From an uncultured bacterium (lineage in GTDB: Bacteria > Verrucomicrobiota > Lentisphaeria > Victivallales > UBA1829), in the NCBI GenBank assembly GCA_902802585.1, contig CADCMR010000006.1:11468-75467 (forward strand): 64,000 nucleotides of DNA. Reading direction: 5' to 3'. Below the pieces are notes generated by a model that searched no databases, had not been told where the DNA came from, and saw only the letters and a program-made list of their open reading frames with translations. The number at the start of each line of letters is the position of its first letter. Position 1 is the stretch's first letter. Below are positions 9,680 through 21,907 of this stretch, one piece after another. The position numbers were made by a program, and so were the translations under genes.

Positions 9680-10288
9680 ATGCCCAGAAAGGCAGTTACC
9701 CCGCGTCCGGCGGCGACCGAACGCGACCGGCGGATGGAACAGCTCGTGTCGAGCTTCTTCCAGATCATCGGCGAGGACGGTTCCCGCGAGGGGCTCGTCG
9801 AAACGCCTGCCCGTGTCCGGCTGGCCGCGGACGAGATCTTCTCCGGCTACCGCCAGGACCCGAAGAAAATCCTGAAGACCTTCACCCAGGACGTGTGCAA
9901 GGAGATGGTCATCCTCAAGAACTGCGAGTTCTATTCCACGTGCGAACACCACCTGTTCCCGTTCTTCGGCCATATCTCCGTCGCGTACCTGCCGAACGGA
10001 CGCATCGTCGGCATCTCGAAGCTCGCCCGCCTCGTGGACTGTTTCGCGCGCCGGTTGCAGATCCAGGAACGCATGACCGCCCAGATCGCCGATGCCATCG
10101 AGGACGTGCTTGGCGCGCGCGGCGTGTACGTGATGTGCGAAGCCACCCACTTCTGCATGACCAGCCGCGGCATCCGCAAGCAGGACGCCAGCATGGTGAC
10201 ATCCGCCATCCGCGGCGCCTTCGAGAAGAGTGAATCGCTCCGCCTGGAGTTTCTCGCCGCCGTGACCGGAAGCATCTCCGTCAAATAA
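9680..10288 (+). CDS. folE: GTP cyclohydrolase I
   Basis: [33 protein letters not shown] and HFCMTSRG motifs. Confidence 0.96.
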
Positions 10289-10416
10289 CTTTTTCTGAAC
10301 AGAAAAAGGGAGCCGCGCGCCGCGATAATGCGATGTGACGCGGGAACGCCGGACGCCGGCAAAAAGCGGAAAGAACACTTTTCCGTTTTTTCAGCGAAAG
10401 AAAGCCGGAAAACGAC

Positions 10417-10445
10417 TTGATTTTGCTCCGGGAAGACTGTATATT
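10417..10445 (+). promoter_or_regulatory. Sigma70-like promoter of thyX
   Basis: TTGATT-N17-TATATT. Confidence 0.5.
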
Positions 10446-10501
10446 GATGCGGAACTTTTTAAAATCGTTTTTTATCTCTTCAAGCGGAAGGATCGACTGA
10501 A

Positions 10502-11203
10502 ATGGCTCTGACACATGTGAACGTGCCACCGGAAAACCATGTGAAGGTACTCGACGGACAAGGCTGGGTGGGACTCATCGACACGCTCGGCACCGAAACC
10601 ACGATCGTGAACGCCGCGCGTGTTTCGTTCGGCAAGATCCGGCAGGAAATGGACGAGCGCGACGTGGCGCTGCTGCACTACCTGATCGAAAACCGCCACA
10701 CCAGCCCGCTGGAGCACATCGTCTTCACGTTCAGCGTGCACTGCCCGCTCTTCGTGCGCGGCCAGTGGCACCGCCACCGCACCTGGTCGTACAACGAGAT
10801 TTCGCGCCGCTACACGGAGATCGATATGGAATTCTACGTGCCGCCGAAACTCCGCAAGCAGGCGGAGAACAACCGCCAGGCGTCCGTCGCCTGCGAGGAC
10901 TTCGACGACGCCGCGCTCCGCGACCTCATCCGCGCCCAGAACGAACAGTCGCTGAAAGCCTACGAATCCCTGCTCGCCGCCGGCGTCTGCCGCGAACAGG
11001 CGCGCGGAGTGCTCTCCCAGAACATGATGGTCACGTTCTGGGGCACGGTCGACCTGAGCAACCTGATCCATTTCCTGGAGCTGCGCGACAGCGAACACGC
11101 CCAGTGGGAAATCCGCGAATACGCAAAAGCTATCAAGAAGCTGATCAAGCCCGTGGTCCCGCACGTCGCCGAATACTACGAATCCAAGGGCGAAGTCTGG
11201 TGA
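10502..11203 (+). CDS. thyX: FAD-dependent thymidylate synthase
   Basis: ThyX signature RHRTWSYNEISRRY, plus HTSPLEH, REQAR and HAQWEIR. Confidence 0.97.
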   Translation: MALTHVNVPPENHVKVLDGQGWVGLIDTLGTETTIVNAARVSFGKIRQEMDERDVALLHYLIENRHTSPLEHIVFTFSVHCPLFVRGQWHRHRTWSYNEISRRYTEIDMEFYVPPKLRKQAENNRQASVACEDFDDAALRDLIRAQNEQSLKAYESLLAAGVCREQARGVLSQNMMVTFWGTVDLSNLIHFLELRDSEHAQWEIREYAKAIKKLIKPVVPHVAEYYESKGEVW

Positions 11204-14897: not shown

Positions 14898-17555
14898 ATG
14901 AACGTCCGCTCTTGTTCCCTCCTCGTCGCGGCAGCTCTGGTCGCGTTTCCCGTCGTCTATGCCCATGCTCAAGCCCCCGTCAACGGACAGCAGCCGGGAC
15001 AAGTTCAAACCCAACAGCAGTCCCGGCAGGGGCAGGGTCAGCGCCAGCGGCAGGGTCGCCAGGGACAGGTCCAACGTCAGCCGCAACAGCAGCTGCCGCC
15101 GCGTCCCGCTGGCAGGGAAAAGGAACTCCTCCTGAACGACAAGGGGTATTTTGAACGGCAGGGCGTTAATGTCCTGGTGTTCAGCAATGCGTTCACGGGC
15201 GGGTTCAACGACGAGAAGAATTCCGGCATCGAGATCATCCACCACGGCGTGCGGACCGTCCAGGGCGGCGCGGTCAGGCTTGGCAAGACGCCCGAGCAGT
15301 GGGACCTTGTTCCCGCGTCGCCGTCGCGCAGGGTGAATCCGGAGAACAACTCCATCGAGGTCACGATGCGCTACAACGACTACCGGTTCGATTCCCGCGT
15401 GGTCGTGACCGGGAAAGGCAGCGCCGTGGAAATCGCGGTCTATCTGGACCGTCCGATTCCTGAAGAACTGGTCGGACAGGCGGGATTCAACCTGGAGTTC
15501 CTGCCGTCCCAGTACTGGAACAAGACCTATGTCATGGACGGCAGGTTCAACCGTTTCCCGCGCTACGCCGCCAGCGATACCCAGGCTGTGCCCAACGAGA
15601 AAAAGCCCATGCAGTACCGGGGGTTCCGCACATACGACGACCGCGGTACCGGCAAGTTCGTTGACCCGCTCCCGCTTGAGAAGGGCAATTCCATCATCAT
15701 CGCGCCCGACGCGCCCGAACGCATGATCAAGATCACGTCGGAGGAAGCCACGCTGGAGCTGTACGACGGACGCATCCTCGCGCAGAACGGCTGGTATGTG
15801 CTGCGCAGTCCGCTGCCCGCCGGAAAGACCGGCAAGGTGATCAGCTGGACCGTGGAGCCGCACGCCGTGCCGGGATGGATCCGCGAGCCGAACATCGGGT
15901 TTTCCCAGGTGGGATACGTCCCGGACCAGCCGAAAGTGGCTGTGGTTGAGCTCGACAAAAACGACCGGGTGATCGCGAACGCGGCGATTTTCCGGATTGC
16001 CGAGGACGGCACGGAGAAGCTCGCATACCAGGGCAAGACCTCCGTCTGGGGCGAATACTACAAATACAAGTACGTGAAGTTCGACTTCAGCGAGGTGAAA
16101 AAGCCCGGAATCTACTACATCCGGTACGGCGAGCACAAGACAGGCAACTTCATCATCGACGATTCGGTCTACAACTGGATCACCAACGCCACCAGCGACG
16201 TCTGGATCCCCATCCACATGAACCACATGACGGTGAACGAGGCGTACCGCATCTGGCACGGCGAACCGTTCAAGGAAGGCTATCTCCAGGCTCCGCCGAG
16301 CAACCACTTCGACAACCATTTCCAGGGGCAGCTTACCGGCATCAAGCCCGACGGGACCCACTACGAGCCATACGAGCTCATCCCCGGGCTGAACGTGGGC
16401 GGCTACTTCGACGCGGGCGACTTCGACATTGAGACCGGCGCAAACATCAACGTGGTCTCGACCCTGATCTCCGCCTGGGAACTCTTCAAGAACAGGCGCG
16501 ACGAAACGTTCGTGAGCGAGGAGCAGCGCTATGTCGACCTGCATCGTCCGGACGGCAAGCCCGACCTGCTGCAGTACATCGAGCACGGCGTGCTGAACCT
16601 GGTCGCGCAGGCGGAAAACATCGGGTTCATGTCCTCGACGCTCTCCAACTCGGTCCTCGACAACTACCACCACCTGGGCGACGCCGCCGCCATCACCGAC
16701 GGTCTGCACTATGATCCCTCCCTGAAACGGTACGAGGTTTCCGAGGACGGCAAGCGCAGTGGCACCCCGGACGACATGTGGGCGTTCACCAACCGCAACC
16801 CGGGTCCCGACCCCAATACCGCCGCCATGTTCGCCGCCGCCGCACGCGTACTGAAAGGTCACAATGACGAGCTGGCGGAACGCTGCATGAAACAGTCGCA
16901 GAAACTCATGGGCACGAACCCGCGCGGCAACATGAACCTCATCCTCCAGCTGTACCGCACGACCGGCGAAAAAGAATACCGGGACATGTTCGAACAGCAG
17001 ATATGGCAGTCCCTGGGACGCAGCGCGAACGGCGGCATCCGGACTGCGCTTGACGCGATCCCGTTCATGGACGCCGAGTACAGGAAAAAACTCGAGCCCT
17101 ACGTGAAGCAGTTCAAGGAGTACATGGACAACTTCGACAGGCTCAACCCGTACGGCGTGCCGATCGGCGAGGGCAACTGGGCGGGCAGCGGATCCGTGGT
17201 CAGCTTCGGCGCCACTGCGTGCCTCGCCAACATCTATTTCCCGGAGATCATCGACAAGAGCTACGCCTACAAAGCCGCCGCGTTCATGTTCGGCTGCCAT
17301 CCGTACCACAACTACTCCCTCGTCGCCGCGGTCGGGGCAGCGCGCCCCAAGGAGGTCTTCTACGGCAACAACCGCGCCGACTTCTCGTTCATCCCCGGCA
17401 ACGTGGCGCCCGGCGTGCTGTTCCGCAGACCCGACCACTTCGAGAACTTCGACGACTGGCCGTTCCTGTGGGGTCAGAACGAGGGCACGATCGCCGGCAA
17501 CTGCGGTTATCTGATCTTTGGCGAGGCGCTCAAGACCATGGCGAAGAAAAAATAA
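14898..17555 (+). CDS. Secreted glycoside hydrolase family 9 with Ig-like domain
   Basis: Signal peptide, Gln-rich linker, SQVGY.P...K.A (GH9 Ig-like domain), GGYFDAGD catalytic motif, FGCHP and the C-terminal NE acid motif. Confidence 0.85.
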   Translation: MNVRSCSLLVAAALVAFPVVYAHAQAPVNGQQPGQVQTQQQSRQGQGQRQRQGRQGQVQRQPQQQLPPRPAGREKELLLNDKGYFERQGVNVLVFSNAFTGGFNDEKNSGIEIIHHGVRTVQGGAVRLGKTPEQWDLVPASPSRRVNPENNSIEVTMRYNDYRFDSRVVVTGKGSAVEIAVYLDRPIPEELVGQAGFNLEFLPSQYWNKTYVMDGRFNRFPRYAASDTQAVPNEKKPMQYRGFRTYDDRGTGKFVDPLPLEKGNSIIIAPDAPERMIKITSEEATLELYDGRILAQNGWYVLRSPLPAGKTGKVISWTVEPHAVPGWIREPNIGFSQVGYVPDQPKVAVVELDKNDRVIANAAIFRIAEDGTEKLAYQGKTSVWGEYYKYKYVKFDFSEVKKPGIYYIRYGEHKTGNFIIDDSVYNWITNATSDVWIPIHMNHMTVNEAYRIWHGEPFKEGYLQAPPSNHFDNHFQGQLTGIKPDGTHYEPYELIPGLNVGGYFDAGDFDIETGANINVVSTLISAWELFKNRRDETFVSEEQRYVDLHRPDGKPDLLQYIEHGVLNLVAQAENIGFMSSTLSNSVLDNYHHLGDAAAITDGLHYDPSLKRYEVSEDGKRSGTPDDMWAFTNRNPGPDPNTAAMFAAAARVLKGHNDELAERCMKQSQKLMGTNPRGNMNLILQLYRTTGEKEYRDMFEQQIWQSLGRSANGGIRTALDAIPFMDAEYRKKLEPYVKQFKEYMDNFDRLNPYGVPIGEGNWAGSGSVVSFGATACLANIYFPEIIDKSYAYKAAAFMFGCHPYHNYSLVAAVGAARPKEVFYGNNRADFSFIPGNVAPGVLFRRPDHFENFDDWPFLWGQNEGTIAGNCGYLIFGEALKTMAKKK

Positions 17556-17832
17556 GCCTGTGCTTCCGGTCAGGCGCACCGCGCCGTACAGCGACGCAAC
17601 ATCCCGCCTGACCGCCCCTGTTCAGGGCATGCACCGGGGGGACCGGTTCCGGGCAGCGCTCATCGGATGCCCGGCACCGTTTCCCGGTTACCCTTCCCTC
17701 ATCGTGACACAAAACATGTTCCGGAACAGACAGGACCCTCTGCTTTAGATTGCCTGGATTTGCCCGTTGCGGCGGAATTACAATCGCGTAGCGTCAATCG
17801 TGATAAAAGGGATGTTCTTTTATATTTTGCGC

Positions 17833-17861
17833 TTGACATTCGCGGGGACTGTCGCTATATT
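17833..17861 (+). promoter_or_regulatory. Sigma70 promoter of the topA operon
   Basis: TTGACA-N17-TATATT. Confidence 0.65.
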
Positions 17862-17948
17862 AATAGAATAAGCAAAAGCAACCCTGCCGGACTTGAGCGG
17901 AACATGGAAAAACCGCGCGGATTTCCGGCATTTCCCGGAGTATACAGC

Positions 17949-20498
17949 ATGAGCAAACAACTGGTTATCGTGGAATCCCCCGCGAAAGCGCGCACGATCG
18001 GGCGCATCCTGCCGTCCGAATACATCATCAAGGCATCAATGGGCCATATCCGCGACCTGCCCGAGAATTCGTTCGGCGTGGACATCGAACACAATTTCGC
18101 GCCGCAGTACGAAGAGAGCAAGGCGCGCGGCCACAACCTCGGCGAGCTCAAGACCGCCGCGAAGAACGCGGTCGACATCTATTTGGCGTCGGACCCTGAC
18201 CGCGAAGGGGAAGCTATCGCGTGGCACCTGCAGGAAGTCCTGCGCAAGATCAACAAGAAGGCGCATTTCCACCGCGTCTCCTTCCACGAAATCACCCGCA
18301 GCGCCATCAACCGCGCATTCCAGTCGCCCGGCGAGATCGACATGAACCGCGTGGACGCCCAGCAGGCGCGCCGCGTGCTTGACCGCATCGTCGGCTACCA
18401 GATCAGCCCGCTGCTGTGGTCTCGCATCGAACGCGGCATCAGCGCCGGACGCGTGCAGTCCGTGGCGCTCCGCCTGGTCTGCGAACGCGAACGTGAGATT
18501 CTGGCGTTCATCCCGAAGGAATACTGGGTCTTCGAGGCGCTCTTCCGTCCGGAAGCGGCGCCGGGCCGCTCCTTCCGCGCAAAACTGGCAAAGGTCGACG
18601 GCAAGAACGCCGACGTGCCGGACAAGGAGCAGGCGGAAGCCCTTCGCAAGCTGATCGACGACGCATCCGCATGGCATATCGCCGACCTGGAGACGTCGCC
18701 GCGCCGCAAGTTCGCGCCGCCTCCGTTCATCACCAGCACACTCCAGCAGGCCGCCAGCTCCGCCATGGGGTTCACCGCGAACCAGACCATGCAGACCGCC
18801 CAGCAGCTTTATGAAGGCATCACGCTCGACAACGGACCCGTCGGCCTCATCACCTACATGAGAACCGACGCGGTGAACATCGCCGCCGAAGCCCAGGCCG
18901 CGTGCCGCGCCTACATTGAGGCGACGTTCGGTCAGGACTACGTCCCGCCGAAGCCCAATATCTACAAATCCAAGGCGAACGCGCAGGCTGCGCACGAGGC
19001 GATCCGTCCGACCGACGTCAACCTGACCCCGGACAAGCTCCGTCCGTTCCTGAATCCCGCCCAGTTGAAACTCTACACGCTGATCTGGCGCCGTTTCGTG
19101 GCGTGCCAGATGAACCCGGCGCTGCTTGAGACCACGACCGTCACCGTCGAAAACGCCGCGTCCGCGCCGCATGTCTTCTCGTTCCGCTCCTCCGCGACCG
19201 TGACCAGGTTCCCCGGATTCCTCGCCGTCTACAACGTCAAGGACGAAACGCACACGGCGGAGGATGACCAGGACGAGTCCGCGCCCGATCCCGAACTCCT
19301 CGGCATGCTCCGCACCGGCACGAAGTGCGAACTCGCCGGATGCAAGCCCGAACAAAAATTCACCGAGCCCGCGCCGCGCTACTCCGAAGCCACGCTCATC
19401 AAGGAACTCGAATCCAACGGCATCGGACGTCCGTCCACGTATGCCACGATCGTGAACACCATTCAGGTGCGCAAGTACGTGAACCGCGAGAAGGGCAAGC
19501 TCATCCCGACCGAACTCGGCTTCCGCGTGAACGACTACCTCGTGAAGTCGCTGCCCGAGCTCTTCCAGGTCGGATTCACCGCCGACATGGAAAAGAAACT
19601 CGACAACGTCGAGGACGGCGAGGTCGAATGGACCGCCATGCTCCGCGATTTCTACGGCGTCTTCTCCGACTGGCTCAAGGAGGCGAAATTCGCCGACGCC
19701 CCGGACGACGACAAGGCCGCCGCGCTCATCGGCATCCTTTCCGGATTCCAGGGCTGGGAAAAGCCGGTCGCGCAGCCCGGCGCAAAGCGCCCGTTCAACG
19801 AAAAGACATTCTTCAACTCGGTCGTCTCCAAGAAGCAGTCCGGCGTTCCGGTCACGGTCAAGCAGTGGAACGCCCTCCTCTCCATCGCGGCGAAATACCG
19901 CGACAGACTTCCCGGTCTGGAGAAAGCCGCCGCAAAGTACGGCTTCACCGGCGAGCTGGACGAGGCGCAGGCGAAACTGAACGCGCATCTTCAGGCGATC
20001 CGGGAACGCCAGGCAGAACAGGTCGAAACGCCGAAGTTCGAGGCGGATCCGCGCCTGGAAGCAGTGTTCCAGGCGGCGGAGAAGGTCAAGTGGAACAAGG
20101 CGGAGCGCATCCGCGGACGCGTTTACGACGATGCCGCGTTCGTGGAATCCCTCCGCAAGCAGTACAAGGCTGGCAAGACGCTCAGCGCCAAGCAGATCGC
20201 CGCGCTCGTCCGCGTCATCCGCAAATACCCGGGACAGTTCCCCGAAGGCGACCTCACCGCCGCAGCGCCCGCGCCCGAGCAGAACCCCGCCGCGAAGGCG
20301 CAGATCGACGCCCTGCTGAACGCGTTCAAGTCGTTTGAAAGCTGGAACGAGCCCACGGTCCGCCGCGGACGCACGTTCAGTGACCGCGACTTCATCGCGT
20401 CGCTCGCAAAACAGCACGCATCCGGCAAGGTCCTCAGCGAAAAACAGGTCGCCGCGCTCGAGCGCATGGCCGCCAAGTACAACCTGAAACCGGTATGA
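17949..20498 (+). CDS. topA: DNA topoisomerase I with atypical repeated C-terminal domain
   Basis: LVIVESPAKA, GHIRDLP, DPDREGE, SAGRVQS, ITYMRTD (catalytic Tyr), AHEAIRPT and GIGRPSTY motifs. Confidence 0.97.
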   Translation: MSKQLVIVESPAKARTIGRILPSEYIIKASMGHIRDLPENSFGVDIEHNFAPQYEESKARGHNLGELKTAAKNAVDIYLASDPDREGEAIAWHLQEVLRKINKKAHFHRVSFHEITRSAINRAFQSPGEIDMNRVDAQQARRVLDRIVGYQISPLLWSRIERGISAGRVQSVALRLVCEREREILAFIPKEYWVFEALFRPEAAPGRSFRAKLAKVDGKNADVPDKEQAEALRKLIDDASAWHIADLETSPRRKFAPPPFITSTLQQAASSAMGFTANQTMQTAQQLYEGITLDNGPVGLITYMRTDAVNIAAEAQAACRAYIEATFGQDYVPPKPNIYKSKANAQAAHEAIRPTDVNLTPDKLRPFLNPAQLKLYTLIWRRFVACQMNPALLETTTVTVENAASAPHVFSFRSSATVTRFPGFLAVYNVKDETHTAEDDQDESAPDPELLGMLRTGTKCELAGCKPEQKFTEPAPRYSEATLIKELESNGIGRPSTYATIVNTIQVRKYVNREKGKLIPTELGFRVNDYLVKSLPELFQVGFTADMEKKLDNVEDGEVEWTAMLRDFYGVFSDWLKEAKFADAPDDDKAAALIGILSGFQGWEKPVAQPGAKRPFNEKTFFNSVVSKKQSGVPVTVKQWNALLSIAAKYRDRLPGLEKAAAKYGFTGELDEAQAKLNAHLQAIRERQAEQVETPKFEADPRLEAVFQAAEKVKWNKAERIRGRVYDDAAFVESLRKQYKAGKTLSAKQIAALVRVIRKYPGQFPEGDLTAAAPAPEQNPAAKAQIDALLNAFKSFESWNEPTVRRGRTFSDRDFIASLAKQHASGKVLSEKQVAALERMAAKYNLKPV

Positions 20499-21154
20499 GC
20501 CGTGTCCGCCGCATCAGCCGCACCAGGATAATCGTTCTCTTCTGGACAGCGGCGACCCTGCTCGCCGCACTGGAGGCCGTCCTGGTCGCGAACTGGCTGG
20601 TCGGCAAAACGTCTCCGCGTATTTATTCCTCTGTGGAAGACATCCCGGCACGCGAGATCGGGATGGTCCTCGGCACACCGGAGTTTTCCGGCGGACGCCC
20701 GAGTCCCGTGCTCGCCGGACGGCTTCAGGCGGCGGCGGAACTCTATCACGCGGGCAAGGTGAAGACGCTGGTCGTATCCGGCGCAAGCCGTCCGGAGCAA
20801 TTTTACGACGAGATTTCAGCCATGACGCGGGGGTTGATCGCGCTGGGCGTCCCGGAGGACGCCATCGTCGGTGACGGCAAGGGGCTCCGGACGCTTGACT
20901 CCATTCTCCGCATGAGGGACGTCTTCGGATACGACGACTTCATTTCCGTCTCCCAGCGGGACCACCTCGAACGCGCGCTTTATCTGTCGGACCACCACGG
21001 CATTTCGACGATCGGGTTCGAGTCGGGGATTCAGCCGCCGGGACTATATCCGGATGAATGGCTCGGATCCGCAATCCGCGCGCCGCTGTCCAACGTGAAA
21101 GCGATTCTGGACATCGCGGTCAACCGTCGTGCGAAATACCCGACCGAACGGTAA
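20495..21154 (+). CDS. SanA/YdcF (DUF218) family protein
   Basis: N-terminal TM, GMVLG, RLQAAAELYHAGKV..LVVSG, GLRTLDS and SQRDHLERAL motifs; ATGA overlap with topA. Confidence 0.88.
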   Translation: MSRVRRISRTRIIVLFWTAATLLAALEAVLVANWLVGKTSPRIYSSVEDIPAREIGMVLGTPEFSGGRPSPVLAGRLQAAAELYHAGKVKTLVVSGASRPEQFYDEISAMTRGLIALGVPEDAIVGDGKGLRTLDSILRMRDVFGYDDFISVSQRDHLERALYLSDHHGISTIGFESGIQPPGLYPDEWLGSAIRAPLSNVKAILDIAVNRRAKYPTER

Positions 21155-21181: not shown

Positions 21182-21907
21182 ATGAATCCTGTTTCCGATA
21201 CGGCATTGATCCTGGCGGCGGGCGGAGCCTCCACCCGGTTCGGCGGCGGCTCCAAGCTCTTCGCGGAACTCGACGGCATTCCGGTTTTCCTGCACGCCGT
21301 CCGCACCGCCGCGTCCGTACTCGCGCCCGGCTCGATCATTTTATCGGTTCCGGCGGCGGGCGAAGCGGATTTCCGCGCCGCCGCGAAAACGCATCTTCCC
21401 GACGTTCAGCTTCATTTCACACATGGCGGAGCGACCCGCACGCTGTCCGTCCTGAACGCCCTCGAAGCCGCCGCGAAACTCGGCGAAACGCGGTTCAAGC
21501 TCGCCGCCGTCCACGATGCCGGACGCCCGATGCTCACGCCGGAACTCCTGCTGGCGTGCCTGGATGCCGCCCGCATCCACGGCGGTGCGATGGCGTGCCG
21601 CAAAGTCGCCGAAACCGTCAAGCGCATCACCCCGGACGGATTCCTCGGCGAGACCGTCCCGCGCGACGAACTCCGCACGGCGGAAACACCGCAGGTCTTC
21701 CGGTTCGATGCTCTCCTGGATGCCTACCGCCGCGCCGCCGCGTCCGGCGAAGTCTTCACCGACGACGCGCAGGTCATGGAACGGTTCGCCCCGGTCCGCG
21801 TGTTCCCGGTCGAACACGAATTCCCGAATCCGAAGATCACATACCGTCCCGACCTGGAGCTGTGCCGCACCCTGCTGCGGCTCCGCCGCGAGGAATCCGG
21901 CGCATGA
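21182..21907 (+). CDS. ispD: 2-C-methyl-D-erythritol 4-phosphate cytidylyltransferase
   Basis: LAAGGASTRFG, GGATR..SV, VHDAGRP, ETPQVF, TDDA and NPKITY motifs. Confidence 0.92.
   Translation: MNPVSDTALILAAGGASTRFGGGSKLFAELDGIPVFLHAVRTAASVLAPGSIILSVPAAGEADFRAAAKTHLPDVQLHFTHGGATRTLSVLNALEAAAKLGETRFKLAAVHDAGRPMLTPELLLACLDAARIHGGAMACRKVAETVKRITPDGFLGETVPRDELRTAETPQVFRFDALLDAYRRAAASGEVFTDDAQVMERFAPVRVFPVEHEFPNPKITYRPDLELCRTLLRLRREESGA

Follow-up and report, generated by a model that had tools for sequence, protein, structure and literature searches.

The C-terminal repeats of bacterial topoisomerase I (TopA) govern how it locates underwound DNA and RNA polymerase, and recent surveys recognise, in essence, two kinds of repeat together with some lineage-specific exceptions (PMC9369019; PMC10969213). 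As described there, each Topo_C_ZnRpt or Topo_C_Rpt unit binds two consecutive nucleotides of single-stranded DNA (ssDNA) by stacking them on two aromatic residues, one of which adjoins an arginine or lysine at a beta-turn, and the array recognises underwound DNA (PMC10969213; PMC9369019). The domains named there at the C-terminus of type IA enzymes are zinc ribbons, Topo_C_Rpt, zf-GRF and zf-CCHC (PMC9369019; PMC10969213), with lysine repeats also among the types given in PMC10969213. In E. coli the C-terminal domains of TopA are reported to bind RNA polymerase as well (PMC4678816), and domains D8-D9 are described as zinc ribbons without their cysteines (PMC9369019). Here we consider the topA gene of an uncultured bacterium of the order Victivallales (class Lentisphaeria; assembly GCA_902802585.1), which lies on a 64,000-nucleotide stretch of contig CADCMR010000006.1, hereafter the window, to whose first letter all positions refer. 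The 276 residues that follow the core of this TopA hold three copies of a 60–70 amino acid (aa) unit. The three repeats are a real, conserved domain family, and a new one, probably in a well-known role.

The three repeats of the TopA C-terminus

A first-pass annotation of the window, made from the sequence alone, held that TopA ends in three copies of an unrecognised repeat and lacks CxxC motifs after the core. Both statements were borne out. The 849-aa protein has five cysteines, all within the core (residues 178, 319, 386, 460 and 465), and none in its final 330 residues, so that there is no CxxC after the core. The three repeat strings that had been quoted are all present in TopA. Their ends were placed exactly, the closing Lys-Tyr of repeats 1, 2 and 3 ending at nucleotides 19898, 20228 and 20480, whilst their starts had been set about 40 nucleotides upstream of each tryptophan and took in only part of a conserved amphipathic helix that precedes it; the unit is thus slightly larger than first proposed (Table 1).

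Table 1. Features of the topA locus and its neighbours, in window positions.
Feature	Position	Strand	Remarks
topA	17949..20498	+	849 aa from likely start ATG at 17949; stop codon 20496-20498
Toprim domain	17958..18293	+	PF01751, E=2e-19, ORF residues 98-209
Topoisom_bac core	18336..19643	+	PF01131, E=9e-116, ORF residues 224-659; contains the ITYMRTD motif
Repeat 1 (diverged copy)	19701..19907	+	W at 19755; GAKRPFNEK replaces G-[KR]-R-x-Y-D-D
Linker, repeats 1-2	19908..20042	+	predicted helical; long helix at residues 94-119 of the C-terminal region (AF2 model, 276 aa)
Repeat 2	20043..20243	+	W at 20091; helix, hairpin, helix, helix in the 276-aa AF2 model
Repeat 3 (to protein end)	20280..20495	+	W at 20343
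Glycoside hydrolase family 9 protein	14898-17555		upstream of topA
DUF218 family gene	20495-21154		next gene downstream of topA
IspD gene	21182-21907		downstream of the DUF218 gene

Repeats 2 and 3 share 50% identity over 46 residues (E=1e-14). Repeat 1 gave no pairwise BLASTP match. A hidden Markov model (HMM) built from repeats 2 and 3 alone nevertheless finds it in register with an independent E-value of 6.6e-5, and against an independent profile, built from 47 repeats of other genomes with every first copy and all window sequence excluded, it scores 34.8 bits, the best of 2000 shuffled sequences reaching 12.1. In a scan of the source genome repeats 1, 2 and 3 scored 59.7, 80.4 and 82.4 bits, and the domain was found in topA only. 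The linker between repeats 1 and 2 can be aligned with that of relatives, with weak conservation.

The predicted fold was obtained from two alignments, the first (A1) of the 276-aa C-terminal region in 11 proteins and the second (A2) of 73 single repeats from the window and 23 genomes. AlphaFold2 (AF2) run on A1 gave a mean predicted local distance difference test score (pLDDT) of 85.8 and a predicted template modelling score (pTM) of 0.48. In this model residues 14-76 contain the three helices of repeat 1, at 14-25, 45-57 and 64-76, its hairpin strands not being called. Modelled singly from A2, repeat 3 reached a pLDDT of 90.6 and a pTM of 0.72, with helices at residues 3-17, 35-47 and 54-66 and strands at 26-28 and 31-33. 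The unit is thus predicted to consist of a leading helix, a short beta-hairpin that carries G-[KR]-R-x-[YFW]-D-D, and two more helices, of which helix 2 bears the motif F-x2-S-L-x2-Q and helix 3 the motif G-K-x-L-S-x-[KR]-Q-x2-A-L-x5-K-Y. Across A2 an aromatic residue at repeat position 33, within the G-[KR]-R-x-[YFW] hairpin, a serine or threonine at 53 and a glutamine at 56 are found in 73/73 repeats. An aromatic at 22 and tyrosine at 67 occur in 72/73, aspartate at 35 and serine at 41 in 70/73, phenylalanine at 38 in 69/73, leucine at 60 in 67/73, arginine or lysine at 31 in 66/73, glycine at 29 and glutamine at 45 each in 60/73 and proline at 25 in 55/73. The first-pass description of the repeats as helical and basic agrees with the three helices and two-stranded hairpin of the AF2 models and with net charges of +5, +8 and +5 for repeats 1, 2 and 3. 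Moreover, 70 of the 73 repeats are net positive (median isoelectric point (pI) 9.4), and the whole C-terminal region carries +12 (pI 9.66) compared with -2 (pI 6.64) for the core.

Searches against known domains returned nothing for this region. With Pfam (models to 2025) at E<=1, TopA matched only Toprim and Topoisom_bac, leaving the last ~280 residues without a match; Zn_ribbon_Top1, Topo_Zn_Ribbon (PF08272, cysteine-less and zinc-ribbon-like), Toprim_C_rpt, Toprim_Crpt and SWIB were all absent at that threshold. No NCBIfam family matched the C-terminal 276 aa. Zn_ribbon_Top1 (PF01396) had no match anywhere in the source genome, the same search being positive in 8 of 14 known genomes used as a control, and Toprim_C_rpt (PF13368) had none in the 301 genomes sampled across the phylum (control positive in 5/14). 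The 73 repeats, searched singly against Pfam at E<=10, gave weak and scattered matches to 35 families, each to at most 4/73 members, and the topoisomerase repeat families are absent from the 25 most frequent of these. An hhalign comparison of the 73 repeats with four Toprim_Crpt repeats from the same phylum gave 1.75%. The GR(F/Y)GPY signature is absent from the repeats, where G-[KR]-R-x-[YFW]-D-D is present with no GPY. The best phmmer match of the C-terminal 276 aa among PDB sequences was an arfaptin at E=0.21, which we judged to be chance.

Fold searches with the repeat model yielded no convincing solved structure and listed no four-stranded domain of Toprim_C_rpt type and no zinc ribbon, bearing in mind that a missing fold match is no proof of a new fold. 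The first-pass annotation had named a match to Toprim_C_rpt or to a degenerate zinc ribbon as the result that would count against it; such a match was sought by HMM, AF2 and fold searches and was not obtained. The repeat is probably a new small fold. No paper on this repeat domain was found in full-text searches of the literature, although the supplementary tables of PMC9369019, in which representative TopA sequences are arranged by class, could include a member. The word Verrucomicrobia has 0 occurrences in PMC9369019 and PMC10969213, and words beginning Verrucomicrob, Lentisphaer or Planctomyc are absent from PMC10969213.

The NCBIfam equivalog TIGR01051 (topA_bact) matches residues 5-580 of the protein at 699 bits against a cut-off of 456.4, which identifies a bacterial topoisomerase I, and the protein contains GLITYMRTD, which we take to be the catalytic, active-site tyrosine motif of topoisomerase I. 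The source records of close relatives give them the name 'type I DNA topoisomerase [Lentisphaeria bacterium]'. The open reading frame (ORF) as called mechanically runs from 17667 to 20498 (+). The true start is likely the ATG at 17949, from which the protein opens MSKQLVIVESP and has 849 aa; relatives are 849-850 aa long. Topoisom_bac has a single match in the source assembly (31 contigs, 92.85% complete), namely topA, and we therefore presume that its product is the only type IA topoisomerase of the cell, a single housekeeping topoisomerase I. The stop codon of topA overlaps the ATG of the DUF218 gene (20495-20498), an arrangement that suggests translational coupling of the two. An IspD gene follows and a glycoside hydrolase family 9 protein is encoded upstream.

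Distribution, carrier proteins and the phage link

When genomes sampled across the phylum were searched with a profile of the complete C-terminal region, 192/301 proved to carry the module, with all 100 of the window's class and 92/201 elsewhere, the matches falling in frames of about 820-1090 aa; some families of the phylum are without it (0/21, 0/26 and 0/23). Copy number is three or four in all 37 proteins compared. Each of the 49 genome loci examined carries the repeats, with three copies in 48 and four in one. A profile search of 1.84 billion representatives returned 640 proteins at E<=1e-3, of which 251 also passed E<=1e-10 and 119 passed E<=1e-30. The repeat is a modest-sized, lineage-restricted family.

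A set of 68 loci came from GTDB species genomes, by a scan biased by its single peptide pattern (from a narrower alignment, A3), and their record titles were counted by hand. Kiritimatiellia, Pontiella or Tichowtungia stood in the titles of 20 of the 68, Lentisphaerae or Victivallales in 17, Verrucomicrobia in 17, the PVC group (Planctomycetes-Verrucomicrobia-Chlamydiae) in two and Spartobacteria in one; two were Spirochaete-labelled metagenome-assembled genomes (MAGs) and nine were unlabelled. Lentisphaeria and Kiritimatiellia are classes of GTDB Verrucomicrobiota. Named carriers include Kiritimatiella glycovorans, Pontiella agarivorans and Tichowtungia aerotolerans, in which the protein is annotated simply as type I DNA topoisomerase. 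Two contigs of MAGs labelled Spirochaetae and Treponematales (L070 and L073) encode a TopA with the repeat, for which mis-binning, a wrong label or lateral transfer would account.

All full-length carriers seen are type IA topoisomerases. Among the 120 best longer matches, PF01131 was present in 113, PF01396 in two and no Pfam family in seven, PF01751 being the only other family. Of the 150 best representatives out of the 640, 29 are at least 780 aa long and 121 are shorter. A search restricted to proteins of 34-126 aa gave 14, all on contigs of at most 4.3 kb; four of these and 17 short matches, read individually, resemble C-terminal pieces of TopA. Free-standing repeats were judged on these listed best matches, and the 490 weaker matches beyond them may hold some.

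The first-pass annotation had the repeats standing instead of zinc ribbons. This holds for the source genome, which has no such ribbon, but not for 14 sampled relatives that keep one ribbon after three repeats. In these genomes, all of sister families, Zn_ribbon_Top1 follows in frame, 60-90 nucleotides downstream of repeat 3. On G289:C2 (9761-10786), for example, the repeats occupy 9761-10606 and the zinc ribbon 10682-10786; the other 13 genomes are G274, G295, G154, G220, G160, G100, G286, G169, G196, G073, G109, G079 and G205. TopA of sister families within the same class consists of the core, three repeats and one four-cysteine (C4) zinc ribbon at the very end, and protein P0077 likewise has three repeats and then a zinc ribbon. 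In the window's family the terminal ribbon was found in 0/20 genomes, which implies a loss in this family or a gain in its sisters.

The module can also be found outside TopA. The metagenomic protein P0146 (859 aa) is Topo III-like and carries one Toprim_Crpt followed by two of the new repeats, and the repeat module is therefore not tied to TopA proper. In four genomes of families without the repeat (G001, G005, G012 and G015; loci L050-L053), the only Topoisom_bac enzyme found has two or three Toprim_Crpt (PF13342), and two kinds of type IA enzyme seem to divide the phylum between them. Two longer TopA relatives, P0037 and P0095 (1039-1051 aa), show four to five repeat matches, some of them degenerate and with the hairpin missing, which points to both gain and decay of repeats in this family. 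A further metagenomic protein, P0033 (602 aa), has PF00180 (isocitrate/isopropylmalate dehydrogenase) as its sole precomputed Pfam family, joined to a three-repeat TopA C-terminus, and is probably a chimera produced by assembly or by gene calling.

The first-pass annotation had likened the motif of the repeats to motifs of small phage proteins. What stands of this is a shared core of helices 2-3. Two PHROGs families of unknown function, phrog_27072 and phrog_21015, match the C-terminal region at 5e-8 and 1e-7, in both cases over part of the profile only (positions 179-211 of 225 and 40-94 of 103), and at E<=0.01 they match 17/73 and 19/73 of the repeats, respectively. Bacillus phage JL gp190 (L056:264-941; 225 aa), reached through a weak tblastn match, is a full-length member of phrog_27072 without any Pfam match. 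The last 37 residues of gp190 can be matched to helices 2-3 of the repeat profile (hhalign 96.1%, E=3e-9, over 37 columns only).

Direct searches of phages and viruses were otherwise empty. With repeats 2 and 3 as queries, tblastn found nothing at E<=0.01 in 50,697 phage records, and another repeat found nothing in phage records at E<=10. A third repeat query gave only matches at E=0.2-7, Bacillus phage JL among them. A Vibrio phage match from tblastn reached 16.5% in hhalign and is unsupported. A scan of viral contigs with alignment A3 produced 231 pattern stretches, none of which was confirmed. The best score in the ESM Atlas, to viral hypothetical proteins, was 0.88, which being below 0.9 is a lead only, and the structural search of BFVD, which likewise led to uncharacterised proteins of phages, stayed below significance (best E=0.17; JL protein E=2.0).

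What the repeats may do

The repeat occupies the same site as the DNA-binding repeats of other TopA enzymes, can take their place in the domain architecture and also occurs together with a zinc ribbon or with Toprim_Crpt. We think it rather probable that each repeat binds nucleic acid and so does the same job as the known TopA repeats on a different scaffold. The usual C-terminal repeats that hold DNA would then have given way to a distinct domain of 60-70 aa, present in three tandem copies. Each copy would bind nucleic acid, most likely ssDNA next to the cleaved strand, through the G-[KR]-R-x-[YFW] hairpin together with the aromatics at positions 22 and 33, on a positively charged surface. 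The array would tether the enzyme to underwound DNA and thereby raise the efficiency and processivity of relaxation, as the zinc-ribbon and Topo_C_Rpt arrays of E. coli and mycobacterial TopA do.

Several points weigh against this proposal. We infer the function from position, charge and analogy. The conserved D35, S53 and Q56 stand at predicted helix starts and may be structural caps, not ligand contacts. The likeness of G-[KR]-R-x-aromatic to the G(R/K)(Y/F)G turn of known repeats concerns a short motif and may be coincidence. The individual domains are modelled with confidence, but the mutual arrangement of the three repeats is uncertain because the pTM of the 276-aa model is 0.48. Lastly, the position of the repeats would be equally compatible with a role in binding a protein partner, because the C-terminal domains of E. 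coli TopA are described as binding RNA polymerase too (PMC4678816).

This last point leads to the main rival, in which the repeats mainly dock a protein partner, be it RNA polymerase, SSB or a lineage-specific factor, and so bring TopA to sites of transcription or replication. Docking fits the same data, and the two roles are compatible with each other. However, no partner was identified, and three features fit nucleic-acid binding better: the positive charge of 70/73 repeats, the invariant aromatic of exposed type in a basic hairpin, and the tandem array of three to four copies, which is typical of repeats that track ssDNA. We consider docking as the chief role unlikely, though worth keeping in view.

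The region might instead be a structural spacer or solubility tail that has no specific ligand and is conserved by descent only, as the variable linkers would allow. We regard this as improbable, given that residues are kept both across classes and across copies (Q56 in 73/73, Y67 in 72/73, F38 in 69/73 and S41 in 70/73), that copy number is held at three to four and that the module has been reused on the Topo III-like P0146. It is highly improbable that a known repeat (a cysteine-less zinc-ribbon-like domain, Toprim_C_rpt or Toprim_Crpt) has here diverged to an extreme degree, for which the cysteine-free zinc ribbons described for E. coli D8-D9 (PMC9369019) are a precedent and the resemblance of the hairpin to the G(R/K)(Y/F)G turn given in PMC10969213 a hint, since no HMM of those families matched at E<=1, none is among the 25 families shown at E<=10, hhalign against Toprim_Crpt stood at 1.75%, the AF2 model shows a two-stranded hairpin with three helices in place of a four-stranded sheet with one helix, and true zinc ribbons and Toprim_Crpt adjoin the new repeat in relatives, where they are easily recognised.

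Nucleic-acid binding by the repeats would also allow a wider reading, to which we lend some weight whilst on balance leaning against it. The repeat would be an undescribed nucleic-acid-binding fold, made up of a helix, a basic hairpin with its aromatic and a helix-loop-helix, that arose in, or was captured from phage by, the common ancestor of Lentisphaeria and Kiritimatiellia and displaced zinc-ribbon arrays as the strand-tracking device of the sole topoisomerase I; it would be a fourth, structurally unrelated solution to one task, and its helix-loop-helix core would be a mobile module of wider occurrence, found in phage proteins too.

Hundreds of TopA proteins now carry ~270 unannotated residues, and a further folded repeat, present throughout two bacterial classes, would close this gap in the domain libraries. 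It would offer a natural test of whether strand tracking can be done by very different folds, and would provide the phage families of unknown function that share the core motif with their first functional handle. Cultured carriers exist in Kiritimatiella glycovorans, Pontiella agarivorans and Tichowtungia aerotolerans, and the question is therefore directly testable. The repeat domain merits cataloguing, and the established view of how TopA works stays intact.

Comparison with known TopA C-termini

The first-pass annotation called the repeat a third type of TopA accessory domain. It is distinct from zinc ribbons and from Topo_C_Rpt, as that phrase implies, but the count is too low, since Toprim_Crpt, the chlamydial SWIB domain and the actinobacterial lysine repeats exist as well. 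With the zinc ribbons (Zn_ribbon_Top1/Topo_C_ZnRpt, PF01396; D5-D7 of E. coli TopA) the new repeat has in common that small tandem repeats directly follow the core and that a basic and an aromatic residue lie near a beta-turn. It differs in being free of cysteines and predicted to be helical, whereas the known domain is a four-stranded sheet. The order of mixed arrays is also different: with the new repeats the ribbon comes last, whereas in mixtures of ZnRpt and C_Rpt, ZnRpt is reported to come directly after D4 (PMC9369019).

Topo_C_Rpt (Toprim_C_rpt, PF13368; D5-D8 of mycobacterial TopA) resembles the new repeat in that its tandem repeats are cysteine-free, of similar size and have an arginine and an aromatic in a hairpin. 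However, this domain is described as a four-stranded antiparallel sheet with one C-terminal helix (PMC10969213), in contrast to the three helices and two-stranded hairpin predicted by AF2. Toprim_Crpt (PF13342) of Topo III-like enzymes is likewise a module that type IA topoisomerases carry in repeated form at the C-terminus, but by hhalign it has no sequence relation to the new repeat. The phage families phrog_27072 and phrog_21015 share F-F-x-S-L-x2-Q-x3-G-x2-L-S-x-K-Q-x2-A-L (helices 2-3) with it, but stand in no topoisomerase context, and the alignment with gp190 covers the last two helices only.

The SWIB domain of Chlamydia trachomatis TopA and the lysine repeats of Streptomyces are further lineage-specific extensions of TopA that do not bind zinc, the chlamydial case coming from the same PVC superphylum as the source of the window (PMC12445093; PMC7398561). 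The SWIB extension differs in being a single domain of eukaryote-like origin, to which the source TopA has no Pfam match, and the Streptomyces lysine repeats are low-complexity tails, whereas the repeats described here are predicted to be folded domains.

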